Assembly: GCA_030700225.1 (NCBI GenBank)
Contig: JAUYJT010000061.1
Location: forward strand, 39,121-103,120
Reading direction: 5' to 3'
DNA: 64,000 nucleotides
Source of the DNA: Candidatus Nanopelagicales bacterium
GTDB lineage: Bacteria > Actinomycetota > Actinomycetes > S36-B12 > GCA-2699445
The notes beneath the pieces were generated by a model, which did not search any database, had not been told where the DNA came from, and was given only the letters and a program-made list of their open reading frames with translations. Positions 12,694 through 26,290 of this stretch are shown one piece after another. The translations under genes were made by a program, and so were the position numbers. Position 1 is the first letter of the stretch. Each line of letters opens with the position of its first letter.

Positions 12694-15665
12694 ACGCCAG
12701 CTCCAACCCCCGGGCAGCGACGACTGGGGGCATGTTGGCCCGCCTGGGCTTCGTGGAACCCGATCGCGCGGAGCAACTGTTGGCGTCGCCGACGCTCGCG
12801 GACTGCGTCAGCAGTGAGGTCCTAGAAGCCATCGCTGACGTCGCTGAACCTGATCTGGCTCTTCTCTCACTTTCACGCGTGCTCGACGCGGCCGATGATC
12901 AGGTAGCCGCGAAGCTTCGCGCTGCGCTGGCGACAGACCCGGGCACGCGCGACCGACTCTTGAGCGTCCTGGGGGTGTCGGAGGCCGTGGGCGACCACCT
13001 CGTGCGGCACCCCAGCGACTGGGAGGTACTCAGTGCCCCTGCGAAGCGGGTCGGAGCCGGGCGAGTCCGCTCCGAGCTTCTGACGGCGGTGGGTGCTGAC
13101 CCGGAACGCGCCGTGCCCGTCGCGGCGGGCCATGGGTCAGAGCAGCTCGACGCGCTGCGACGGGAGTACCACAGGCAGCTGATCCGGATTGTGTGCGCGG
13201 ACGTGGCTGAGGGGTTGCCCTTCGACAGCGTCGCGGAGGATCTGTCGGATGTCGCGGATGCGGCACTTGAGACGGCGCTGGCCATCGCGCAGTCGGAAGC
13301 CGGTTCCCCTCCGTGCCGTTTCGCCGTAATAGCGCTTGGGAAGTGCGGCGGGCGCGAGCTGAACTACGCGTCCGATGTGGATGTTGTGTTCGTTGTGGCA
13401 TCAACGTCTGGCGACGATGATGGCGCGGTTCGGGACGGCACTCGGCTCGCGACCGCCTTGATGCGCGCCTGCAGCGCGACTACGCGTGAAGGATCGTTGT
13501 GGGAGGTCGACGCGGCGCTTCGCCCAGAAGGCAAATCCGGGGCGCTCGTCAGGACACTGGACAGCCACGTTGGCTACTACGAACGCTGGGCGCAAACCTG
13601 GGAGTTTCAGGCGCTGCTCAAAGCCCGCCCGGCCGCCGGTGACATGGAACTCGGACGTCGGTACGCGGATGCTGTCTCGCAGTTCGTTTGGTCCGCGGCC
13701 GGTCGGCCGAACTTCGTCGATGACGTGCAGGCGATGCGACGACGAGTGGAGCACTCCGTCGTGGGCGCCGCGGCTGCGCGCCAACTCAAGCTGGGTCCAG
13801 GCGGTCTGCGTGATGTCGAGTTCAGCGTGCAGCTGCTGCAACTGGTTCACGGTCGCAGCGATGTGATGCTCCGCAGCCCCAACACGATGAGGGCGCTCGA
13901 GGCGTTGTCCATCCACGGATACGTGGGGCTGAAGGACGCGGCACAGATGGCTGCCGCCTACCGGTTCCTGCGCACCATGGAACACAGGATCCAGATGTAC
14001 CGCTTGAAGAGGACACACCTCGTGCCGGAGTCTGAGCGGGATCTGCGGCGCATCGCCCGCTCGATGGGCATGCGCGCTCACCCCCAGGCGCAGTTGGAGT
14101 CCGCCTGGGGGTCTAGCGCCCTTGACGCACGCAGGTTGCACGAGAAGTTGTTCTACAGGCCGCTGCTGCAGGCCGTTGCCCGCCTCGACAGTGGTGAGGC
14201 CCGCCTGACGCCGGATGCCGCCCGCCAGCGACTGGCGGCACTTGGATTCGCCGACCCAGCATCGGCGCTGCGCCACATCGAAGCGCTGACGTCCGGAATC
14301 ACTAGGCGATCGGCCATCCAGCGCACGCTGTTGCCTGTGATGTTGTCCTGGTTCGCGGACGGTCCGGATCCGGATGCGGCTCTGCTGGGCTTCCGGCAGG
14401 TGAGCGAGGCGCTCGGCGGATCGCCATGGTTCCTGGGGATGCTGCGTGATGAGTCGGTGACCGCTCAACGCCTGGCGAAGGTCCTGGGCAGCAGTCGATA
14501 CGCCAGCGAGCTGCTCCAGCGGGCTCCGGAAGGCGTCAGGATTCTGGGGTCAGACGATGAGCTGGTTCCGTTCGGGCGGGAGCAGATGGAGGTCGAGGCC
14601 CTTGGAGCCGCGAGTCGTCATGATGAGCCTGAGGCTGCGATCCAGGCGATTCGTGGGATCCGCCGCCGTGAACTGTTCCGGCTGTCGGTCGGCGATGTCC
14701 TGCGGCTCACTGATGTGGAGCAGGTGGGCCGTGGACTGTCCGACGTGACGATGGCCTCGCTGGCTGGGGCGCTGTCGATTGCGGGGAAGGGCCGGAAGCC
14801 GGCCGTGAGATTCCTAGTCGTGGCGATGGGCAGGATGTCGGCGGGTGAGGCCTCGTATTCGTCAGACGCGGACGTCATGTTCGTCTATGAGGCGGTTTCG
14901 GGGGTCCAGGATGAGGAAGCTGGTCAGATCGCGCTCGGTTTGGCCAATGAGATGGCCAGACTGCTGACGTTGCCTTCGGCCGACCCCGCGCTGGTCATGG
15001 ACGCGGACCTGCGCCCCGAGGGGCGCAACGGGCCGGTTGTCCGATCGCTCGATTCGTACCGTGCCTACTACTCGCGCTGGTCGAGTACATGGGAAGCCCA
15101 GGCGCTGTTGCGGGCCGGGCGAGCATGTGGAGACGGGGGACTTTGGAAGAGATTCGTCCAGGTGATCAACCCGCTGCGCTATCCCGATGGCGGTCTGGCG
15201 TCCGAGCAGCGGCGGGAGATACGCAAGCTCAAGGCTCGGGTGGAGGCCGAGCGGCTTCCTCGTGGCGCCGACCCGACGCTTCACACCAAGCTCGGGCGGG
15301 GCGGACTGTCTGACGTGGAGTGGACCGTGCAGCTACTTCAGATGGATCACGCCTACGCGGTTGAAGGACTTCGGACAACGAGCACCCTGGAAGCGTTGGC
15401 CTGCGCCAAGGACAACGACTTGATCGCCGAACAGGATGCCGAGCAGTTGGCGTCAGCTTGGACTCTGGCCGCCAGAGTGCGCAACGCCATAATGTTGGCA
15501 ACAGGCAGGCCGGGGGACGTTGTGCCCGGCGACGCCCGGTCTCTGGCCAGGACAGCGCACGTCATGGGTTATGGCCCGGGGGAGAGTCAGGAACTCGTTG
15601 AGGATTACCGGCGTACAGCTCGGCGGGCTCGTCGAGTAGTCGAGAGGATCTTCTACGGCGAGTGA
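12690..15665 (+). CDS. glnE: bifunctional glutamine-synthetase adenylyltransferase / adenylyl-removing enzyme
   Basis: 991 aa with two nucleotidyltransferase halves (ALGKCGGRELNYASDVDVVFV and AMGRMSAGEASYSSDADVMFV). GTGA overlap with the glnA2 stop. Confidence 0.92.
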   Translation: MNASSNPRAATTGGMLARLGFVEPDRAEQLLASPTLADCVSSEVLEAIADVAEPDLALLSLSRVLDAADDQVAAKLRAALATDPGTRDRLLSVLGVSEAVGDHLVRHPSDWEVLSAPAKRVGAGRVRSELLTAVGADPERAVPVAAGHGSEQLDALRREYHRQLIRIVCADVAEGLPFDSVAEDLSDVADAALETALAIAQSEAGSPPCRFAVIALGKCGGRELNYASDVDVVFVVASTSGDDDGAVRDGTRLATALMRACSATTREGSLWEVDAALRPEGKSGALVRTLDSHVGYYERWAQTWEFQALLKARPAAGDMELGRRYADAVSQFVWSAAGRPNFVDDVQAMRRRVEHSVVGAAAARQLKLGPGGLRDVEFSVQLLQLVHGRSDVMLRSPNTMRALEALSIHGYVGLKDAAQMAAAYRFLRTMEHRIQMYRLKRTHLVPESERDLRRIARSMGMRAHPQAQLESAWGSSALDARRLHEKLFYRPLLQAVARLDSGEARLTPDAARQRLAALGFADPASALRHIEALTSGITRRSAIQRTLLPVMLSWFADGPDPDAALLGFRQVSEALGGSPWFLGMLRDESVTAQRLAKVLGSSRYASELLQRAPEGVRILGSDDELVPFGREQMEVEALGAASRHDEPEAAIQAIRGIRRRELFRLSVGDVLRLTDVEQVGRGLSDVTMASLAGALSIAGKGRKPAVRFLVVAMGRMSAGEASYSSDADVMFVYEAVSGVQDEEAGQIALGLANEMARLLTLPSADPALVMDADLRPEGRNGPVVRSLDSYRAYYSRWSSTWEAQALLRAGRACGDGGLWKRFVQVINPLRYPDGGLASEQRREIRKLKARVEAERLPRGADPTLHTKLGRGGLSDVEWTVQLLQMDHAYAVEGLRTTSTLEALACAKDNDLIAEQDAEQLASAWTLAARVRNAIMLATGRPGDVVPGDARSLARTAHVMGYGPGESQELVEDYRRTARRARRVVERIFYGE

Positions 15666-15680
15666 AGCAAGCGCTCCGCG

Positions 15681-16859
15681 TCAGGGGCGGGCTCTGCGCA
15701 GCCTTCGCCTGGCGAGCAGCATCACCGAAGCGCCCGCGAACGCAGCCGCAGCCGAGGTCATCCAGGCCAGACCCCACCCCAGAGATGTGGCGATAACGCC
15801 GATGAGCACCGGACCGGTCAGCAGGCCCAGCGACACCCCGGTCTGAGTGATACCGCTGGCGGCGGCGGTGGATTCCGGGAAGCGGCGGGCCACGGCCAGG
15901 TGGATCAGGCCGGGCCAACCCCAGCCGAACGCGTTGGCTGCCAGGAGCCCGACGAGGAAGGGCCAGGGGGACATTGTGGACATCATCAGCCACCCCACCG
16001 CTCCGGCGGCGCAGAGTGCGGCGGCCGCGATGAGCGCACCTCCCTGGACCCGGTCGGCTCGCCAGCCCGCAGCCAGGCGGACGGCCAGTCCGGCGGCCCC
16101 TCCCGCGGCGACCAGATAGCCGGCTGTGGATTCCGAGAAGCCGACCGCCACGGCAGATGAAGCGGCGTGAGCCCCTATTGACGTGGCCGCGATCGCCGCA
16201 GCGGCCAGTCCCGCCGCGAGCAGCCAGGCTCCGCCGCGCTCCCCAGGCGCGACGGGCCGCTCGGCGCGACCAGCGGAAGGCTGGACGTTGGCCGGAACAA
16301 GGAACCCGGCGAGCAGCGACAGCAAGGCCGCGGCGACATAGGCGGCGCGCCAATGCAGAGTCAGGGCGATGGCCGGCACCGCCAGGCCGCCGAGCAGGAT
16401 CGAAAGCGGTATCGCGGACTGCTTGATCGCATATGCCATGCCGAACCTTGATGTCGGCACTCTCGCGGCGACCAGCGCGTTGGAGGCGGGTTGCCCGAGT
16501 GAGTTGCTCAGGCCGCCGATCGCTAGCGCGGCGGCGAGCAGCACAGGCGTCGGCGCAGCCGCGGCGGCGGTCAGGGCCATGCATGACACGGCGGCGGCCG
16601 TGCGCATGGAAGTAGTGATGCCGAGCGATCCGACTGCGCGACCCAACGGCGCGCTTGTCAGCAGGGATACGGACGCGAACGCCGCGACAACGAATCCAAT
16701 CCCTCCAGGGCCGAGTGCCATGTCCTTGCCGATCTGGACAGCCATCGCTCCAGTGAGGAACAGAGGTAGTACACCTGCGAGATTCACCCCAACGGCTGCC
16801 AGGAGGGCTCTGATGCTGCCCTTAGTCCAAGTCGCCGCCGGTGGACGCCTGTGGTGCAT
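15681..16859 (-). CDS. MFS transporter (12-TMS type)
   Basis: Hydrophobic throughout. Start trimmed to MHHRRPPAATW (ATG, complement of 16857-16859). The full ORF extends to 16979. Confidence 0.65.
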   Translation of the reverse strand: MHHRRPPAATWTKGSIRALLAAVGVNLAGVLPLFLTGAMAVQIGKDMALGPGGIGFVVAAFASVSLLTSAPLGRAVGSLGITTSMRTAAAVSCMALTAAAAAPTPVLLAAALAIGGLSNSLGQPASNALVAARVPTSRFGMAYAIKQSAIPLSILLGGLAVPAIALTLHWRAAYVAAALLSLLAGFLVPANVQPSAGRAERPVAPGERGGAWLLAAGLAAAAIAATSIGAHAASSAVAVGFSESTAGYLVAAGGAAGLAVRLAAGWRADRVQGGALIAAAALCAAGAVGWLMMSTMSPWPFLVGLLAANAFGWGWPGLIHLAVARRFPESTAAASGITQTGVSLGLLTGPVLIGVIATSLGWGLAWMTSAAAAFAGASVMLLARRRLRRARP

Positions 16860-16912
16860 CAACGCCCCTGCCCCCGCACCAATCGTGAGGGGATCACAAC
16901 TGGGCCTGACAC

Positions 16913-16950
16913 GTAACACGACGGAAACATTCGGGACACTGCCGGGAAAC
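16913..16950 (+). promoter_or_regulatory. putative GlnR operator (two a-site/b-site boxes) upstream of glnA
   Basis: GTAAC-n6-GAAAC-n6-GACAC-n6-GAAAC read directly at 16913-16950, about 125 bp upstream of the glnA start. It matches the published actinomycete GlnR consensus gTnAc-n6-GaAAc-n6-GtnAC-n6-GAAAc. Confidence 0.6.
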
Positions 16951-17074
16951 CCCGCCCTCCTAGATTGGACCGCAGCCACTGAGGGGACACTAGTGGTTGG
17001 CCGCGTTGGCCGGACACTTCGTCCAGGGGTCTGCGGATCTGAGTCGGCAGTCTGAACACCGTGAGGGAGACTGA

Positions 17075-18499
17075 ATGTTCAAGAACGCGCATGAAGCGCT
17101 GAAGTTCGTGAAAGACCACGATGTCCGGTTCATCGACATTCGGTTCTGTGATCTTCCTGGGGTCATGCAGCACTTCAACGTGCCGGCCGAGACCGTGGAC
17201 GAGTCGTTCTTCACCGAGGGTCAGATGTTCGACGGGTCATCGATCCGGGGCTTCCAGGCGATCCATGAGTCGGACATGAAGCTGATTCCGGACCCGGCGA
17301 CGGCGTTCGTGGACCCATTCCGGGCACAGAAGACCTTGGTCATGAACTTCTCAATCCGCGACCCGTTCACGGACGAACCCTATTCTCGCGACCCGCGCCA
17401 GGTGGCGGCGAAGGCTGAGGCATACCTGGCGTCGACCGGCATCGCCGACACCGCGTACTTCGGCGCTGAGGCTGAGTTCTACGTGTTCGATGATGTGCGA
17501 TTCGAGACGAAGCAGAACGCTTCCTACTACTACATCGACTCGATCGAAGCGGCTTGGAATACAGGCCGGGTCGAAGAGGGTGGCAACCGCGGATACAAGA
17601 CGCGGTACAAGGGCGGCTACTTCCCGGTACCGCCCGTGGACCACTTCGCGGACATGCGTGACGAGATGTCGCACGAGTTGCAGAAGGTCGGCATTGAGAT
17701 TGAGCGGGCCCACCATGAGGTCGGCGCCGCGGGTCAGGCCGAGATCAACTACAAGTTCAACACGCTGCTCCACGCGGCGGACCAGGCGATGCTGTTCAAG
17801 TACGTGATCAAGAACGTCGCCTGGCGAAATGGGAAGACGGCGACCTTCATGCCGAAGCCCGTGTTCGGGGACAACGGTTCTGGCATGCACTCGCACCAGT
17901 CGCTGTGGAAGGACGGAGTGCCGCTGTTCTACGACGAGCTCGGGTATGCGGGGCTGTCAGACGCTGCCCGGTGGTACATCGGCGGGCTCTTGGCCCACGC
18001 GCCCGCGCTGCTGGCGTTCACGAACCCGACGATGAACTCCTATCACCGCCTGGTTCCCGGCTTTGAGGCTCCGGTGAACCTGGTGTACTCGCAGCGCAAC
18101 CGATCCGCGTGCATCCGGATCCCGATCACCGGCGCGAACCCGAAGGCCAAGAGGATCGAGTTCCGGGTGCCGGACCCGTCCAGCAATCCGTACCTGGCGT
18201 TCTCCGCGATGATGATGGCGGGCCTGGACGGGATCAAGAACAGGATCGAGCCGGCGGCGCCGGTCGACAAGGACCTGTACGAGCTTCCGCCGGACGAGGC
18301 CGCTGGCATCCCACAGGTGCCATCTTCGCTTGAGGGTGCGCTTGCCGCTCTTGAGGGGGACAGCGAGTTCCTCTCCGAGGGAGGCGTGTTCACCTCAGAC
18401 CTGATTGAGACTTGGGTGGACTACAAGCGAGCCAACGAGATCGACCCGATCAGGCTGCGTCCGCATCCTCACGAGTTCGAGATGTACTACGACCTGTGA
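17075..18499 (+). CDS. glnA: glutamine synthetase, type I
   Basis: 474 aa. [33 protein letters not shown], and the adenylylation-loop region KDLYELPP. Confidence 0.95.
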
Positions 18500-18520
18500 C
18501 AGACGCCGTAGACCCGAAGT

Positions 18521-18570
18521 GGCCCCTGACCTGCGGAAACGCGGGATCGGGGGCCGCTTTCGTTTGCTCT
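18521..18570 (+). terminator. possible intrinsic terminator after glnA
   Basis: GGCCCC (18521-18526) pairs with GGGGCC (18550-18555) and is followed by GCTTTCGTTTGCTCT. The loop is long, so this is weak. Confidence 0.3.
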
Positions 18571-18610
18571 CGAGCAGCCAATTCGCGCGAGTGTCAGATA
18601 TAGTCGACAT

Positions 18611-18949
18611 GTGATCGTGGTTGTCCGCACCGACGACTTCGATGGCTGGATCCGGAAGCTCAAGGACAAGCAGGGCAAGCTCCGCATCCTCAAGCGCATC
18701 GACCGGCTGGCAAACGGCAATCCTGGCGATGTCGGTCCGATCGGCAAGGGCCTGTCGGAGCTGCGGCTCGATGTGGGACCGGGATACCGGGTCTACTGCC
18801 TGCAAGACGGTGACGCGCTGGTCCTCCTGCTCTGCGGCGGAGACAAGTCAACGCAACGGAAGGACATCGAGAAGGCGCGCGAGCTCGCCGATGAGTGGCG
18901 AGCACAGAAGGACAAAGACAAGGAGGAAGACGATGACCAAGAAGAGTGA
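18611..18949 (+). CDS. type II toxin, HigB/RelE-superfamily 'addiction module killer' type
   Basis: 112 aa. FDGWIRKLKD..RILKRIDRLANGNPGDVGPIGKGLSELRLDVGPGYRVYC..LLLCGGDKSTQ matches the addiction-module killer family pattern as I recall it. Confidence 0.8.
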   Translation: MIVVVRTDDFDGWIRKLKDKQGKLRILKRIDRLANGNPGDVGPIGKGLSELRLDVGPGYRVYCLQDGDALVLLLCGGDKSTQRKDIEKARELADEWRAQKDKDKEEDDDQEE

Positions 18950-19247
18950 GAAGTTCAAGCCGTTCGACGTGGCCGACTACCTTGACGACCTCAATGACGT
19001 CGCCGGCTACCTCGAACTTGCCCTCGGAGAGTCCGCCGAGGACCCGACCGCAGTTCCCCGCGCTCTCGGCGTCATCGCGCGTTCGCAGAACATGAGCGAG
19101 CTCGCTCGCAGAGTCGGCATGAGCCGTGACGGGCTCTACAAGGCGCTCTCCGAGGAGGGCAACCCGACCTGGTCGACGATTCTCAAGGTGACCAACGCGC
19201 TAGGACTGCGTTTCGAGCTGCACGCTGCTGCGCACGACGTGGCCTGA
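18933..19247 (+). CDS. HigA-type HTH antitoxin ('addiction module antidote')
   Basis: ATG at 18933 overlaps the toxin's 3' end. MTKKSEKFKPFDVADYLDD..IARSQNMSELARRVGMSRDGLYKALSEEGNP is an HTH_XRE-like antidote-protein pattern. Confidence 0.8.
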   Translation: MTKKSEKFKPFDVADYLDDLNDVAGYLELALGESAEDPTAVPRALGVIARSQNMSELARRVGMSRDGLYKALSEEGNPTWSTILKVTNALGLRFELHAAAHDVA

Positions 19248-19429
19248 CGGTTTCGCGGCACATCCGGCGGCGACTGCTGCCCGTGATAGGCGTCTTCGCT
19301 GTCGGGTCAGAGGTGGCCTACGTGCCGAGGGTGGTCATGGCCGGGGCAAGGCGGAGTCCGGCCCGTCGCCAAGCCTATGATCATTAGAACAGAAACTGGG
19401 AATGTATCAACTGACGATACGCTCCAAGT

Positions 19430-20548
19430 ATGAAAGCGAAGGATGCCCTCCGCGTGCTTGCCGAGGTCACCGCCTACCAGTGGGGCATGGTGACGTCGGC
19501 TCAAGCCAGCATCCACGGCATCACCCGACTGGACCTTTCGCGACTCGCCGCCGACGGGCTCCTGGAGCGACTCGCTCACGGCGTCTACAAGGATGCCGGT
19601 GCTCCCGGCGATCAGTTCGACGACATGCGGGCCGCATGGCTGAGCACCGACCCGAAGCGTCTCGCCTACGAGCGCAGCAAGAACCTCGCAGGCGACGCCG
19701 TCTTCGCGGGCGGGTCTGCTGCCCGTCTACACGGCATCGGTGACCTCTGGGATCGACACCACGACTTCATGGCGTCGACGCGCCGACAGAGCCAGCGGGC
19801 CGAGATTCGCTATCGCCAGTGCAGGCTGGACTCGCGCGACGTCACCATCGTCGAAGGACTCCCCACGCTGACGATGGAGGCGACGGTCGCCGATCTCTTC
19901 AACGTTGAGGCCGATCTGCGCCACATCGCCGACGCCCTTCGTGATGCAGCGGGAAGACGTCGTCTCGACTTCGCGAAGATTGAAGAGCTGCTGGCCCCGT
20001 ACGCCGCCCGCAACGGTTTCCGCAAGAGCGACGGCGCCGGACTGCTCCGGCACCTCATGGAGCTCGCCGGCCTTGATGTCGATTCGCTGGCTCGGGTCCT
20101 GGCCCGGTCGCCGACTTACGGCTCGCTGGCGGAGGTGGCCAAACTCGTCGGGAATGTTGATGCCTTCGTCGGCACCATGACCAAAGCCGACGTGTCGGGT
20201 CGCCGATACGATGGAGGCGTGGCCGATATCGCAGCGCCTGCCCGGAAGCCGCTCAGCGGCCCCACGGGTCGCCGTGTGGCCGCCCACCGTGGGGAGCTTC
20301 TCGATGTGCTGCGCCGTCACGGCGTCACGAACCCAGAGATCTTCGGCAGCGCCGCACGGGGCGACGATCGCGAAGACAGCGACGTCGACCTGCTTGTCGA
20401 TTTCGCACCCGGGACCGACATCATCGACGTCATCGGCATCAAGCGGGAACTGGAAGACGTGCTCGGTGTGCCCGTCGACTTGGTGCCACGCAACGGCCTC
20501 AAGGAGCGCCTGCGCTCACGCGCCGCGAAGGATCTGCTACCACTGTGA
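19430..20548 (+). CDS. fusion protein: AbiEi-like N-terminal domain plus MNT-type minimal nucleotidyltransferase C-terminal domain
   Basis: 372 aa in one uninterrupted frame. The N-terminus (LRVLAEVTAYQWGMVTSAQASIHGITRLDLSRLAADGLLERLAHGVY) resembles AbiEi-type antitoxin/regulators. The C-terminus (LLDVLRRHGVTNPEIFGSAARGDDREDSDVDLLVDF) carries the GSxxRGx(n)DxD Pol-beta NTase motif of MNT antitoxins. Confidence 0.7.
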   Translation: MKAKDALRVLAEVTAYQWGMVTSAQASIHGITRLDLSRLAADGLLERLAHGVYKDAGAPGDQFDDMRAAWLSTDPKRLAYERSKNLAGDAVFAGGSAARLHGIGDLWDRHHDFMASTRRQSQRAEIRYRQCRLDSRDVTIVEGLPTLTMEATVADLFNVEADLRHIADALRDAAGRRRLDFAKIEELLAPYAARNGFRKSDGAGLLRHLMELAGLDVDSLARVLARSPTYGSLAEVAKLVGNVDAFVGTMTKADVSGRRYDGGVADIAAPARKPLSGPTGRRVAAHRGELLDVLRRHGVTNPEIFGSAARGDDREDSDVDLLVDFAPGTDIIDVIGIKRELEDVLGVPVDLVPRNGLKERLRSRAAKDLLPL

Positions 20549-20694
20549 GCCGCTCCGACGCCGACCGACTCGATGACATCGCGACAGCCATCACGTCGAT
20601 CCGCTCTCACCTCCAGCTCACCGTCGACAACCGCCTGGCGCCTCTCGCTGACGCCATCGAACGCATGAAGGGCATCCTGCCGCCCGAGATATGA
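20545..20694 (+). pseudogene. truncated HepT (DUF86)-like toxin remnant, 49 codons
   Basis: GTGA overlap with the upstream stop. VSRSDADRLDDIATAITSIRSHLQLTVDNRLAPLADAIERMKGILPPEI has HepT-like N- and C-terminal helices. It lacks the central Rx4HxY RNase motif and is less than half the usual length. Confidence 0.5.
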
Positions 20695-20772
20695 GGCTTG
20701 CATCGCCAGGTGCCCTCGCTCGATCTCCTCCCGAATCGCCTTGATAGCACAGGCTGCGTGAGTCGCTGGCGC

Positions 20773-21465
20773 TCAGCGACCGCGCATCTGCGCCCGGGCG
20801 GCCTTCGCGCTCTTCGGCATGGGGCCCTTGGGGATCGGGGCTGGCTGCTTGGTCACAGCGTCCAGGCGCCGTCGCACAGCAGTGACTTCCGCCGGCCTCA
20901 ACGCCTTCGGGAGTCTCGAGAGTCGGCGTTGGAGTTTCGCGATCGGTACCTGTCCATCCTCGGTGCCGACCTGGATCTCGTGTATCGGGGTTTCGGGGAC
21001 ATACCGCTGGGTGCGCTTCTTCTCGCTTGTCAGGACGTGCTCAACACGCGCCGACGGGCCCTCGGAGACCAGAATCACGCCGGGTCTGCCGACGACTCGG
21101 TGAACGATGTCCTGGTTGCGAGTGACGCAAACTCCTGGGGTCGTAGTCCAGTTGCCACGCATCGCCTTCGCGACGGCGGCCGCACCGCCAGGCTGGTCCT
21201 CCACTTGACGGTAGGCGGCGCTCATGGCTTTGCGACTGAAGTAGAACATCGCCGCCAGTAGGCCAAGCGGGACGCCCATGATGATCAGCGTCGCCGGGTT
21301 CCCAATCAGGGCCCCGGCGAGGATGAACACGGCCAGCACGACGCAGAACAGACCGAGCATGATCCATCCCACGCTCGGATAGACCTGGCGAGTCATCTTG
21401 AAGTTGGCCCGCAACTGGGAAACCCAAGCGAAACGCTTCTTCTTCGGTTCAGGGGCTGGTGGCAT
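20773..21465 (-). CDS. DUF4191-family membrane protein
   Basis: 230 aa. [20 protein letters not shown], two TM helices, conserved position next to lipA in actinobacteria. Confidence 0.75.
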
Positions 21466-22384
21466 GGTCCCCAGGATAGGTCACGGCCGAGCGGTACAGG
21501 CGGCCAGCTCTGTACGACGAACGCACTAGCGGACCGCTCATGACCCCCCGGAATCCGGCAGACAGCGCGAAAGCGCGCCAAGCTTCGAAATCCTCGGGCG
21601 GAACCCAGCGGGCTACCGGGTGGTGGCGAGCACTGGGACGCAGATACTGAGTGATCGTGAGCAAGTCGCAACCCGCGGCGCGCAGATCCAAAATCGTCGC
21701 TACGACGTCTTCGTCCGTTTCGCCAAGCCCGAGGATCAGGTTCGACTTCGTGATGGCGCCGAGTCCCTTGGCATGCGTGATCACCGAGAGCGATCGCTCG
21801 AAGCTGAACGCGGGCCGTACCTCGCGCATGAGCCGGGGCACGGTCTCGACATTGTGGGCCAGCACCTGAGGACCAGCGTCGATAACCTCATCGAGCAGAT
21901 CGGACTTGCCGGAGAAGTCGGGGATGAGAACTTCAACGCCGACGTTGGGGACGGCGGAGTGGATCTGCCGCACGGTCTCGGAGTAGAGCCAGGCACCCTG
22001 ATCAGGCAGATCGTCGCGGGCCACTCCCGTGACAGTCGCATACTCCAGGCCCATCTTCAGCACTGCCGCGGCCACGCGCTCCGGCTCAGCGAGGTCCAGA
22101 GCATCCGGCCTTCCGGTGTCGATTTGGCAGAAGTCGCAGCGCCTCGTGCATCGTGATCCACCGACTAGGAACGTCGCCTCACGATCTTCCCAGCACTCGA
22201 AGATGTTCGGGCAGCGAGCTTCCTGGCAAACGGTGTGGAGCGAGTCGTGTCGGACGAGCTCTTGAATCTCCAAGTAGGTGGGACCCGTCGACAGCTTGGT
22301 CTTGATCCACTCTGGCTTGCGTTCGATCGGCGTCTCGGCGTTGTGGCGCTCTATCCGGCGCAGGGGCAGATCCGATGTGGCCAC
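21449..22384 (-). CDS. lipA: lipoyl synthase
   Basis: 311 aa. [13 protein letters not shown]-type cluster ([14 protein letters not shown]) and radical-SAM motif [10 protein letters not shown]. Confidence 0.95.
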
Positions 22385-22392
22385 ACGCGAGC

Positions 22393-23130
22393 CTAAGCGG
22401 TGGCCGGGCCGCTAACGGGCCACTGGCCGCCGAGTCGTCGCGTCAGTGCCGCAGCGGCATCACGCGCTGTGACCGCGGATCCGAGGACTCGCGTCAGCGA
22501 AGTCACGCCCGCGTCCGGAATGCCGCAAGGCACTATCCGGTCCGCCCAGGTGAGGTCGCAGTCGCAGTTGAGCGCGAAACCGTGCATGGTCACGCCCCGA
22601 GCGACCCGAACGCCGACGGCTGCGATCTTCGCGTCCCTGCCCGCTGCATCGTGCGTCCAAACTCCAGAGCGACCTTCGCGGCGCCCGGCCCGGACCCCGA
22701 AGCTGTCGCAGACAGCCAGGAGCAGCGACTCCATGCGCCGCACATGTGCCACTACGTCGAGAGGGTGTGGCAGGCGGACGATTGGGTAGCCGACGAGCTG
22801 CCCAGGGCCGTGCCACGTGATCCGGCCACCCCGGTCGACGTCGATCACGGGTGACCCGTCGACGGGGCGGTCCGTAGGGCGCGTCCGGGTTCCCGCCGTG
22901 AAGATCGGCGCGTGCTCCAGCAGGAGCAACGTGTCGGGCCGGGAGCCATCGGCCACCCGCGCGTGGATGGATCGCTGAAGCCGCCAGGCCTCCGGATAGG
23001 GGATGAGACGCGAGCCCAGCTCAAGCTCCACGATGTCGAGCGGCCGTGCCCTGGCGCCGCCGTCGGCAACTGGCGCCCTTGGACGCTTGTAGTGAGCCGT
23101 CTCGACGACGGCAGTACCCGCGGAAGTCAA
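22393..23130 (-). CDS. lipB: lipoyl(octanoyl) transferase
   Basis: 245 aa. [47 protein letters not shown]. The exact start is uncertain. Confidence 0.88.
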
Positions 23131-24785
23131 AGTCCCAGCTCCCCCTCGAACTCTCCTTCCTCAAGCCGCCGTTTGATGGCTGACATGAACCGCGCGGCGT
23201 CCGCTCCGTCTATGACCCGATGGTCGTAGGTCAGTGCCAGATAGGCCATTGACCTGATCGCCATGAGATCCCCGCCGTCCGAACCCTGGACGACAACCGG
23301 CCGCTTGACGACCGCTCCCGTGGCCAGGATGGCGACCTGTGGCTGGTTGATTATTGGGGTGTCGATCAGGGATCCCCGGCTGCCGGTGTTTGTCAGCGTG
23401 AATGTCGCGCCGGACAACTCGTCAGGTGAGACGCGGTTCGTTCGCGTGCGCTCGGCGAGATTCGCGATGTGCCGGGCGAGGCCAGCGATGTTGAGGTCGC
23501 CCGCGTCGCGGATCACGGGTGCGAGCAGACCGCGCTTGGTGTCGACCGCGATGCCCAGATGCTCGAAGTCGTGGTAAGTGATCTCGCCCTCCGCCATGTC
23601 AACCGAGGCGTTCAGGGACGGATGGGACTTCAGGGCTTCGACAGCGGCCTTGGCGAAGAACGGAAGGTATGAGAGCTTGACGCCTTCGTGGGACTCGAAG
23701 CGTTCCTTGACCCGGCTGCGCAGAGCGGCGATGCGGGACAGGTCCACCTCTGACACGGTCGTCAGTTGCGCGGAAACCTGGAGCGATTCCACCATTCGCT
23801 CGGCGATGAGACGTCGCAAGTTCGACATCTTCTCGGTTCTGCCGCGCAAGTCGGCCGCCGTGGGCTTCGGGGCGTCTGGCGTGGTCGGCGCTGGACGGGA
23901 CGGCGGCCGCTGGACGCGCGCCCCCGTCTGGCCAGGACTGGCCGTTGTCGGTTGTTGGCTGCCAACTCCCGCCGCTGCCAGGACATCCTGACGGCGGATT
24001 CGCCCGCCGATTCCCGTGCCGACTACAGAACCCAGGTCCACGCCGTGGTCGGCGGCGAGCTTACGGACCAGCGGCGTGACATAGGCGGGACTGGTGTCGG
24101 TGGCGGGTCCGGCGTCCGGGGCTGAGCCCGCGGGCGGCGGTCCCCCGGCGGTCCCGGTGCCGGGTCCCTTGGTCGGCCCAGCGGCTTCAAGCCTCACGCC
24201 GCTGGCTCCGACCCCGGCACCCGACACCGGGACCGAGGCGGGGGATTGAAGCGCGCTGGCTGATCCGACGACGCCAATCGCGCCACCTACCTCCACAACC
24301 TCGTCCTGCGCGGCGACGATCTGAAGAAGAGTCCCGGCGACGGGGCTGGGGATTTCGGTATCAACTTTGTCGGTCGAGATCTCCACGAGCGGCTCGTCGA
24401 CCTCAACGGTGTCGCCCACTGACTTCAGCCAACGGATAACGGTGCCTTCGGTGACGGACTCCCCAAGTTCGGGCAGCGTGATCACGGTCGGTGCATCGGA
24501 GGCTGGCGCAGCGGATGCTGGCGCGGGGGGCTGAGCCGACATCTGATCTGCCGCGCCTATCACCGCGAGTTCAGCTCCAACCGCCACGACGTCGTCCTCC
24601 GCCGCAGCGATCGACACGAGGACGCCGGACGCTGGGGCGGGGATCTCGGTATCCACCTTGTCTGTGGCAACTTCGACGATGGGTTCTCCGTCTGCGACCA
24701 TGTCTCCCACCTGCTTGAGCCAGCGGGTGACTGTGCCTTCTGTGACGTTCTCGCCGAGTTGCGGCATGGTGACGTTGACCGACAC
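23127..24785 (-). CDS. sucB: dihydrolipoamide acyl(succinyl)transferase E2 component
   Basis: Two lipoyl domains (2x ..[14 protein letters not shown]..), an Ala/Pro linker, a PSBD ([16 protein letters not shown]) and a catalytic domain ([16 protein letters not shown]). Start placed at GTG 24785 ([12 protein letters not shown]). ATG alternatives are at 24800 and 24767. Confidence 0.9.
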
Positions 24786-24892
24786 GCGTATCCACTCCAA
24801 TCCGTGGCTAGTGGCCAGCTCATCTTCCCCTGAGTCGGGCCTTCTGTCAGCTACCGGTTCGTGGCATGTGGGCGGCGCGTCTTCTCGGCGCG

Positions 24893-26290
24893 CTATCCGT
24901 GCGCGTGCAGGGGCTTCCCGGCTAGCGCGAGGTGGGCCTCGCCGAGGGCCTCGTTCTGCGTCGGATGCGCGTGGATCAGGGTCGCGACGTCCCCCGGGAT
25001 GGCTTCCCAGCCGCAGATCAACTGGGCCTCTCCGATCTGCTCGCCCATTCGACTGCCGACCATGTGGATACCCACGACCGGGCCGTCGGTCAGCTGCACG
25101 AGCTTGACGAAGCCCCGAGTTCCCAGGATCTGACTCTTGCCGTTCCCGGCCAGGTCGTACTCGTATGTGCTCACCGAATCATGCCCGAACTTGTCGCGCG
25201 CCTGAGCTTCCGTCAGCCCCACCGAGGCCACTTCGGGGTCGCAGTAAGTGACGCGCGGAATGGCGGTCTCAACGATCGGTTCGGGTCGCAGACCGGCGAT
25301 CTCCTCGGCGACGAATACCCCTTGCGCGAACCCGCGATGCGCCAACTGCGGCCCAGGCACGATGTCCCCGACAGCGAACACGTTCGGCAGATTCGTGCGC
25401 AGACGCTCATCTGTGATGACCCACCCACGGTCCATCGCCAGGCCACTGGCTTCGTAACCCATCCCCGACGTGTTGGGGCCTCGGCCCACAGCGACGAGCA
25501 ACAGGTCAGCGGTGAGTGTCGCTCCATCGGCCAGAGTCACGGTCACGCTGGATTCGTCCTGAGTCGCAGAGGTGAGCGCGACGCCGGTCTTGAACGCGAT
25601 CCGGCGCTTGCGGAAAGCGCGTTCAAGAGCCTTGGAGCACGCCTCGTCCTCAGCCGCTACGAGATTCGGTAGGGCTTCGACGATGGTCACGTCGGCGCCG
25701 AAGGACCGCCAGACGCTGGCGAATTCAACGCCGATGACCCCGCCTCCAAGCACGATCACCGAATCTGGAATCCAGTCCAGCTCCAGAGCCTCGTCGCTGG
25801 TGATGATGCGACCGCCGATCTCGAGGCCGGGGAGAGTGCGGGGCACCGAGCCTGAAGCCAGGACCAGATTCCGCCCCCGATAGCCGACTCCACCGACCGT
25901 GATCTCATCGGGTCCGGTCAGGGCGCCCGTGCCCGCGACGTAAGTGATGGCCTTGCTTTCCACCAATCCCCGCAGGCCCTTGTACAGCCGCGCGACTACG
26001 GAGTCCTTGTAACGGTTGACGCCCGGCAAGTCGATCCCGTCGAAGGTCGCCGACACTCCGAAGGCCGCCGAGCCGCGCGCGGTATCGGCGACTTCCGCGG
26101 CATGCAGGAGCGCCTTGGTCGGGATGCAGCCGCGGTGCAGACAAGTTCCGCCCAGCTTGTCCTTCTCAATCAGCGCCACCGACAGTCCCAGCTCGGAGGC
26201 CCGAAGCGCACACGCGTACCCGCCGCTGCCACCGCCCAGGATGACGACATCGAACAACTCGCCCGCCGCCTCGCCGGTTTCGTCAGTCAT
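24893..26290 (-). CDS. lpd: dihydrolipoyl dehydrogenase (E3)
   Basis: FDVVILGGGSGGYA, redox-active GGTCLHRGCIPTK, C-terminal HAHPTQNEALGEA. Start trimmed to MTDETGE (ATG, complement of 26288-26290, GAGGAG upstream). The 590-aa ORF is read-through. Confidence 0.92.
   Translation of the reverse strand: MTDETGEAAGELFDVVILGGGSGGYACALRASELGLSVALIEKDKLGGTCLHRGCIPTKALLHAAEVADTARGSAAFGVSATFDGIDLPGVNRYKDSVVARLYKGLRGLVESKAITYVAGTGALTGPDEITVGGVGYRGRNLVLASGSVPRTLPGLEIGGRIITSDEALELDWIPDSVIVLGGGVIGVEFASVWRSFGADVTIVEALPNLVAAEDEACSKALERAFRKRRIAFKTGVALTSATQDESSVTVTLADGATLTADLLLVAVGRGPNTSGMGYEASGLAMDRGWVITDERLRTNLPNVFAVGDIVPGPQLAHRGFAQGVFVAEEIAGLRPEPIVETAIPRVTYCDPEVASVGLTEAQARDKFGHDSVSTYEYDLAGNGKSQILGTRGFVKLVQLTDGPVVGIHMVGSRMGEQIGEAQLICGWEAIPGDVATLIHAHPTQNEALGEAHLALAGKPLHAHG

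Follow-up and report, generated by a model that had tools for sequence, protein, structure and literature searches.

The window examined here, a 64,000-nt stretch of contig JAUYJT010000061.1 from a Candidatus Nanopelagicales bacterium, contains a gene, abiEi::mntA, in which an AbiEi-type antitoxin module and a minimal nucleotidyltransferase (MNT) of the MntA type are joined in one open reading frame (ORF), followed by the short remnant of a hepT toxin gene (Table 1). Very probably, abiEi::mntA encodes the intact fused antitoxin of a conserved actinobacterial family of HepT/MntA toxin-antitoxin (TA) systems that carries an AbiEi regulatory module, and the window copy of this system is a decaying remnant. 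A sequence-only reading of the window had described a single frame of 372 amino acids (aa) with an AbiEi-type N-terminus and a minimal nucleotidyltransferase, and this description was borne out by the ORF itself and by searches with Pfam and PADLOC profiles.

Table 1. Features at and around the abiEi::mntA locus; positions refer to the window.
Feature	Position	Strand	Remarks
glnA	17075-18499	+	upstream neighbor of the fused gene
HigB/HigA-like TA pair	18611-19247		between glnA and the fused gene; TIGR02683 E 3.3e-37, TIGR02684 E 1.2e-29
Inverted repeat, putative AbiEi operator	19396..19428	+	CTGGGAATGTATC-N7-GATACGCTCCAAG; ends one base before the start codon
abiEi::mntA fusion gene	19430..20548	+	372 aa, ATG start, intact; single uninterrupted ORF containing GSAARGDDREDSDVDLLV
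AbiEi part, residues 1-234	19430..20131	+	winged helix-turn-helix at 10-53 and AbiEi C-terminal domain
Linker, residues 239-271	20144..20242	+	predicted disordered; predicted local distance difference test (pLDDT) below 50
MntA-type minimal nucleotidyltransferase domain, residues 283-372	20276..20545	+	
GSX10DXD motif, G306-D320	20345-20389	+	intact
hepT remnant, 49 codons	20545..20694	+	GTG start; residues 1-24 and 88-112 of the full protein
TCCAGC, sole surviving copy of the 6-bp repeat	20612..20617	+	from DNA alignment with 7 loci
Scrap of the element's convergent 303-aa gene, 3' end	20695..20762	-	reads ...AIKAIREEIERGHLAM, stop lost
DUF4191 gene	20773-21465	-	Pfam E 1.8e-78

Domain Composition of the Fused Protein

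Both halves of the fused protein are supported by profile searches. The N-terminal winged helix-turn-helix (wHTH) was matched by Pfam AbiEi_4 on residues 10-53 (E 1e-8, 35.6 bits against a cut-off of 25), and the PADLOC AbiEi profile PDLC02231 covered residues 1-234 with its positions 1-226 of 280 (E 6.5e-85), thereby including the AbiEi C-terminal domain, which is the antitoxicity domain. This part of the protein shares 57-70% identity with the AbiEi proteins of AbiEi/AbiEii pairs that occupy the same slot of the mobile element described below. The C-terminal part was matched by Pfam NTP_transf_2 on residues 293-367 (E 4.9e-12, 46.5 bits against a cut-off of 21) and by PADLOC PDC-S09 profiles (E 4.5e-29), and the minimal nucleotidyltransferase of PDB entry 1WOT could be aligned to residues 284-372 (E 2e-17). 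The GSX10DXD motif reads GS-AARGDDREDS-DVD at residues 306-320 and is invariant in 35 fused proteins. An AlphaFold model of the whole fusion, computed with 35 family members, was relied on for the linker and for Foldseek leads only. It is confident in the wHTH and MNT parts and disordered at residues 239-271. The top three Foldseek matches were two chains of S. agalactiae AbiEi (6Y8Q) and 1WOT, followed by MntA chains, among them 7BXO with a root-mean-square deviation of 1.8 over 68 columns (E 0.037).

A Conserved Family With a HepT Partner

A search for the same domain architecture in other organisms revealed that the fusion is conserved: AbiEi and nucleotidyltransferase Pfam domains co-occur in at least 50 of the 120 best protein clusters listed, with lengths of 344-385 aa and identities of 60-100%. 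In the ESM Atlas, two clusters of the same architecture comprise 53 and 143 members, mostly from Actinomycetota. A frameshift or read-through artefact of this particular genome was considered as the origin of the long frame and ruled out, as 50 clusters share it. In the databases, the fusion is labelled only automatically (JGI and ESM Atlas names). A further ESM Atlas cluster of 50 proteins shows DUF6577 joined to NTP_transf_2, and N-terminal additions to MNT antitoxins may be a wider theme.

The partner of the fused gene was identified by comparison of genomic loci, 37 of which (L011-L046 and L064) underlie all counts of gene context. In six of the seven fused loci (L011, L012, L013, L014, L023 and L026), an intact HepT ORF of 112-115 aa carrying the Rx4HxY motif in the form RDFLAHHY follows the fused gene, with the same four-base overlap GTGA at the stop codon. 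The full HepT of L011 matches the Pfam HepT-like family (E 1.8e-15), and L023 is a locus of Phycicoccus elongatus Lp2. The seventh fused locus, L015, carries a recombination scar, as from codon 13 onward its hepT gene gives way to a piece of the relaxase gene (L015 4114-4431; relaxase residues 476-561, 69% identity). Loss of the toxin is common in the family: at loci where the MNT stands without an AbiEi part, an Rx4HxY HepT is intact downstream in five of 13 cases, and in the other eight the hepT gene has decayed beside a surviving MNT gene. The window shares the GTGA overlap, in which the antitoxin gene comes first and the toxin gene second, with each of the other 16 loci compared but L037. 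At the corresponding place in the window there are only 49 codons and the RX4HXY motif is gone. Because this motif is absent from the window and kept in six of seven fused relatives, the window copy is a broken member of the HepT/MntA family. The sequence-only reading had envisaged an architecture of two fused antitoxin modules with a decayed toxin. The fusion holds, whereas decay is no part of the architecture, given that six of seven fused loci keep HepT. Its suggestion of an uncharacterized TA arrangement agrees with the fusion domains and the HepT partner identified here, and the full-text literature search, which did not extend to subscription journals and supplements, yielded no paper on this arrangement.

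A 189-bp Deletion in hepT

In the window, the stop codon of the fused gene and the start codon of the 49-codon ORF overlap in the same manner as in the relatives (...CTGTGAGC..., with GTG as start and TGA as stop), as had been noted from the sequence. The 49-aa product had no match of its own in Pfam, NCBIfam or PADLOC. Each of its residues has a counterpart among the first 24 or the last 25 residues of the full HepT of the relatives, and when the DNA of the window and of seven loci was aligned, a single gap of 189 columns appeared in otherwise continuous homology. The gap corresponds to an in-frame deletion of 63 codons, HepT residues 25-87, which include the whole Rx4HxY motif. The earlier view of a gutted HepT that lacks this motif and retains its terminal parts was therefore upheld by the alignment with full-length neighbors, and the idea that the 49-aa ORF might be a complete, conserved protein is at odds with the 112-115-aa HepT that relatives carry at this place.

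In L012, L013 and L014, the relatives with CAG at the 5' site, the missing segment is flanked on both sides by TCCAGC, and a deletion between such repeats is the signature of slippage or of a microhomology-mediated event. Logan contigs from two runs, derived from two samples of one study, span positions 19380-20780 with 0 differences; the junction-spanning contigs have lengths of 11,432 bp (depth 97) and 6,411 bp (depth 154), and neither run contains an alternative contig. At exactly 20612 and 20617, contigs of relatives from two soil runs part from the window and continue as ...HHYFATNPEII and HGPISVEIV..., which are both ends of the missing segment. The RNA runs listed contained only 6-9% of the sampled words. 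A search for short homologues among proteins of 26-86 aa returned one candidate, the window's own 49-aa sequence, and a degenerate pattern of the junction gave 0 matches in metagenome contigs, in a search that may omit the window's own records. Because no short homologue and no junction match were found, the short HepT form appears to be private to the lineage of the window and not a conserved small protein. For the remnant codons, the ratio of nonsynonymous to synonymous substitution rates (dN/dS) is 0.31-0.40, compared to 0.28 for the same codons between intact genes.

A Candidate Operator at the Start Codon

All 24 AbiEi-bearing loci share an inverted repeat with the consensus CTTGGAATGTATC-N9-GATACACTCCAAG, whose 13-bp arms end 1-2 bases before the start codon. 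The strict motif is found in the window and in 15 of these 24 loci, variants with 1-3 mismatches were recognized by eye in the other nine, and none of the 13 MNT-only loci carries the repeat. The arms are separated by 9-10 nt in the 15 loci with the strict motif and by 7 nt in the window, where 2 bp of spacing have been lost and one arm base differs. The exact core of the window repeat measures only 5 bp and was missed by a general repeat search. A TACACT hexamer is located at -12 to -7 from the A of the ATG, with TTGGAA 17 bases upstream of it; in the window the hexamer reads TACGCT. As there is no room for a ribosome-binding site, a leaderless transcript is suggested whose promoter would lie beneath the repeat. 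In the 2.6-Mb genome the core motif was found a single time (control 0), which gives no sign of a wider regulon. The proposal that the locus represents a domesticated regulator thus found no support.

Anatomy and Origin of the Fusion

Short AbiEi proteins terminate with ...VENVG* at the very point where the fusion has ...VGNVD and reads on. The 3' part of the linker (RRYDGxM; DNA CGCCGATACGATGGAG) is homologous to the untranslated 5' leader of MNT-only genes, and stand-alone MNT genes start with M-S/T-E-T-A-A-P, which corresponds to codon 264 of the fusion. At least 88% of 35 fused proteins have Met at this position, and the codon is a GTG in the window (20219-20221). Because of these short AbiEi ends, the leader homology and the MNT starts, the fusion can be read as a whole AbiEi gene, about 16 bridging codons, an MNT leader and an MNT gene, and internal initiation at codon 264, yielding free MNT, is possible. 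The start of a stand-alone MNT had been placed at VAAHRGELL in the sequence-only reading; it has to be moved 19 codons upstream, to codon 264, where the relatives start.

It was also proposed that the fusion arose by loss of an upstream stop codon. The anatomy is consistent with such an event, considering the ...VENVG* end and the leader within the linker; several MNT-only genes of this data set, however, resemble products of deletion from the fusion more than a form ancestral to it. In L035, L036 and L037, 3' scraps of the AbiEi part are kept in front of the MNT.

Mobile Element Context and Cassette Exchange

A gene with a TrwC relaxase domain (E 4.7e-45) and an AAA_30 domain (E 1.3e-57) lies directly upstream, whole or fragmented, in 23 of the 37 loci, and glnA is found within 3 kb upstream in 12. 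The fused gene is usually part of an integrated conjugative element, right behind its relaxase gene. The MNT of L013, L035 and L036 is 91-92% identical to that of the window, whereas glnA at these loci shares only 69-74% identity with its window counterpart. Because of this discrepancy, the module appears to have moved horizontally and to have landed repeatedly beside glnA.

Comparison of the loci L016-L034 and L035-L046 with L011-L015, L023 and L026 showed that the slot after the TrwC-type relaxase gene is filled in three alternative ways: AbiEii (Pfam E 6.2e-21 and 1.3e-19) preceded by an AbiEi of about 244-370 aa, AbiEi::MNT followed by HepT, or an MNT of 109 aa followed by HepT. In a DNA tree of the MNT part, the nine MNT-only rows are nested within the fused ones. 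Three fused and nine MNT-only rows make up one starred clade, and the fused L011 groups with L038 and L039 at 95/98. The starred branches force at least two changes in this tree, whose root is unknown. In the AbiEi tree, the fused rows are split between two starred clades that both contain AbiEi-only rows too, and at least two changes are forced as well. Because the two trees are discordant, the AbiEi and MNT halves seem to differ in their history, with cassettes exchanged by recombination more than once.

Homology of the window to this element extends from the operator (about 19396) to about 65 bp past the hepT stop codon, and no relaxase remnant was found at the window locus. The last part of the homologous stretch is the scrap of a convergent gene, which was found by alignment against L011, L012, L042 and L043. 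The full gene (L012 4459-5370, minus strand) matches no Pfam family.

Proposed Mode of Action and State of the Window Copy

The relatives of the fused gene are coupled by GTGA to a full hepT gene and occupy the slot after a TrwC-type relaxase gene, and because of these two features the fused protein would be a type VII HepT/MntA antitoxin that took over the regulatory module of AbiEi together with its promoter-operator. In this model, residues 1 to about 243 would form a complete AbiEi antitoxin/repressor, connected by a flexible linker of about 30 residues to an MntA-type nucleotidyltransferase. The AbiEi winged helix of intact copies would bind the 13-bp inverted repeat over the presumed leaderless promoter and repress the operon, and the MNT domain would AMPylate the Tyr of RDFLAHHY in HepT and keep the RNase silent, as is suggested by motif identity with the system of S. 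oneidensis. HepT would be released if the element or the antitoxin were lost, and the module would probably stabilize a conjugative element or abort phage infection.

In the window, the deletion between two TCCAGC repeats took away the catalytic and AMPylation motif of HepT, and the toxin is predicted to be incapable of activity. The relaxase and the rest of the element are missing as well, and the putative operator is 2 bp short. The locus is best read as a remnant in decay, made up of an orphan antitoxin, a dead stub of the toxin and a fragment of the neighboring gene; the antitoxin is either on its way to decay itself or kept for action in trans. The window copy was rated as ordinary decay and the architecture as a variant of a known theme.

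Evaluation of Alternative Explanations

Several observations weigh against the interpretation as a fused HepT/MntA antitoxin in a decaying locus. Two profiles stayed below their cut-offs, namely Pfam AbiEi_1 on residues 85-167 (15.7 bits, cut-off 22.2) and the NCBIfam MntA equivalog on residues 304-367 (E 1.5e-10, 40.9 bits, cut-off 60). The AlphaFold model is poor as a whole (mean pLDDT 60.4, predicted template modeling score 0.36), and the Foldseek match to AbiEi 6Y8Q (E 1.2e-4) has a low template modeling (TM) score of 0.29, owing to the poor model. A sigma-70 consensus scan of 18500-20900 found 0 promoter-like sites, the leaderless promoter being a reading of the alignment. The two runs that cross the deletion junction may be the source of the assembly, in which case their agreement attests to consistency and is not independent proof. 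Finally, the fused ORF does not look like a decaying gene. It is 89% identical to that of L011, its dN/dS amounts to 0.21 in comparison to L011 and 0.23 to L012, similar to the value of 0.24 between L011 and L012 with their intact toxins, and it departs from the family at eight of 102 nearly invariant columns (family range 1-19). Such a healthy ORF fits a very recent toxin loss and equally well a retained function.

Retention for a function is the basis of the first alternative, according to which the orphan fused antitoxin is kept as useful, in the role of a chromosomal factor for immunity or anti-addiction. Incoming conjugative elements of this family would have their promoter silenced and their HepT neutralized, and possibly their AbiEii as well, via the AbiEi C-terminal domain. 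This scenario draws on the intact ORF and catalytic motif, the dN/dS of 0.21 and the absence of excess changes at conserved columns; Actinomycetota commonly harbor related elements whose slot is filled with HepT or AbiEii, and an antitoxin that is an enzyme can act in trans. However, a pairwise dN/dS is an average across the two lineages, from which the period after the deletion cannot be separated, and the operator has a spacing 2 bp shorter than in the other 24 AbiEi-bearing loci. Moreover, the decay of the toxin beside a surviving MNT in eight of 13 MNT-only loci requires no selection, and the genome contains neither a related element nor a close AbiEii, the best AbiEii sharing 30% identity with the slot type. 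The immunity scenario is therefore considered unlikely. A more elaborate version, in which AbiEi::MntA would be a bifunctional antitoxin that combines operator binding with activity against both AbiEii and HepT, in which free MNT from codon 264 may occur, and in which the orphan copy is kept since it would disarm and silence incoming AbiE or HepT/MntA elements, appears somewhat more doubtful still.

A functional, domesticated mini-protein of 49 aa, acting for example as a co-repressor or as an MNT-binding partner, would account for the in-frame deletion, the kept GTGA coupling, the preservation of both terminal helices and the remnant-codon dN/dS of 0.31-0.40, compared to 0.28 between intact genes. 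Yet one deletion in three is in frame by chance, and this one lies at a 6-bp repeat, as is typical of replication slippage. Furthermore, the search of 26-86-aa proteins brought up no other short homologue, metagenome contigs gave no match to the junction pattern, and the operator motif, with its single occurrence in the genome, offers no wider regulon for a co-repressor. This explanation is regarded as very improbable.

Hardly any credence is given to the idea that the nucleotidyltransferase half is an AbiEii-like toxin restrained in cis by the AbiEi half, with HepT as an accessory and the window system complete. The usual partner of AbiEi is indeed a nucleotidyltransferase toxin of the Pol-beta type, according to the available text of one study (PMC3985639), and fused toxin-antitoxin proteins are known from the available part of another (PMC13000451). 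However, this half is a minimal domain of 90 residues with best matches to 1WOT, MntA and the MNT antitoxins of HepT pairs. It shows no match to the 238-position AbiEii profile, which does match the partners of AbiEi-only genes, and in six of seven relatives it remains coupled by GTGA to a HepT that carries the tyrosine for AMPylation. Least credible is an assembly artefact or minority variant in an organism that has a full hepT, since, although the window stems from a metagenome-assembled genome of 85 contigs and the junction was seen in contigs and not in raw reads, contigs of two runs (depth 97 and 154) cross it with 0 differences and without an alternative contig, and the region contains only a 6-bp repeat and no long repeat to mislead an assembler.

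Comparison With Known Systems

HepT/MntA is considered to be among the most abundant TA families, and its characteristic motifs are GSX10DXD in the antitoxin and RX4HXY in the toxin, whose Tyr is poly-AMPylated; in S. oneidensis, MntA transfers three AMPs onto Y104 of HepT by means of GSX10DXD (PMC7641770). The system described here resembles that of S. oneidensis in that the MNT gene lies upstream of and overlaps the hepT gene (available text of PMC7641770), in the intact GSX10DXD of its MNT domain, and in the HepT of the relatives, which has RX4HXY and matches the Pfam HepT-like family. In contrast, its antitoxin carries an N-terminal AbiEi module of 260 residues as well as a linker, and its operon is preceded by an AbiEi-type inverted repeat. 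The HepT of the window further differs by the absence of residues 25-87 and with them of any RNase or AMPylation site.

Likeness to the type IV AbiE system (AbiEi/AbiEii) concerns the N-terminal 234 residues, which match the AbiEi profile end to end, and the inverted repeat at the presumed promoter, as described for S. agalactiae AbiEi (PMC3985639). However, no AbiEii (DUF1814) partner follows; the cargo consists of MNT and HepT, and in the window a cognate AbiEii directly downstream is missing, with the hepT remnant in its place. The repeats differ as well, with 13-bp arms, N9 and a position abutting the start codon here, as opposed to 11-bp arms and N27 in S. agalactiae (same passages of PMC3985639). 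FhepTA, the MNT-HEPN fusions of Shewanella, are likewise a fusion variant of the HepT/MntA theme on mobile elements, with high similarity between fused and split forms; FhepTA unites an antitoxin with its own toxin, whereas the antitoxin of the present family is joined to an antitoxin/regulator from a different TA type and the toxin has a gene to itself (PMC13000451 for FhepTA). A census of HEPN proteins mentions MNT-HEPN fusions and wHTH fusions of other HEPN families and, in its accessible part, no AbiEi-MNT fusion (PMC3710099).

No description of an AbiEi-MNT fusion was found in a search of the full-text literature, with subscription journals and supplements outside the search. Decayed chromosomal TA loci with orphan antitoxins are a general phenomenon. 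The window copy resembles such loci in that its toxin is inactivated while the antitoxin ORF survives in the remnant of a mobile element, and it has nothing particular to set it apart, and it matters less than the family, although it offers a well-resolved case of toxin loss by probable slippage at a 6-bp repeat in a decaying element. The regulation of HepT/MntA operons is poorly known, and the family would represent a natural solution in which an enzymatic antitoxin was welded to an AbiE repressor/antitoxin and inherited its operator. As far as the two trees indicate, it clearly illustrates how TA types can exchange cassettes while the regulatory chassis stays the same, and it provides a testable system of one protein with two separable antitoxin modules and a defined, putative operator with 13-bp arms.

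Genomic Neighborhood and Insertion Site

Between glnA and the fused gene, the window carries an apparently intact second TA module that consists of a HigB/RelE-like toxin and a helix-turn-helix antidote encoded by overlapping ORFs. Two TA modules are thus present within the 2.3-kb spacer between glnA and the DUF4191 gene. Beyond the latter follow ORFs that we take, from their translations, to be lipA, lipB and sucB.

A tRNA scan of 14000-26000 found none, so that there is no tRNA attachment site here, and an Rfam scan of 18400-20900 gave no match up to E 0.1. The base composition of the insert is not distinct (guanine-cytosine content 0.64-0.69, compared to 0.60-0.66 in the flanks). A terminator scan of 18500-20900 identified one terminator-like site at 18548-18562, no more than in shuffled sequences.

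The spacer between the convergent glnA and DUF4191 genes (18500-20772) is a variable insertion site in the family of the window organism: it is shortest in G008 (413 bp), reaches about 730 bp in both G005 and G012, 1.1 kb in G001 and, in the window, 2.3 kb, and is longest in G007 (14.7 kb). Elsewhere in the genome there are several further MNT-like genes (contigs C35, C16, C23 and C84), four AbiEii genes (C42, C45, C15 and C46) and one other HepT-like match (C84:12264-12404).

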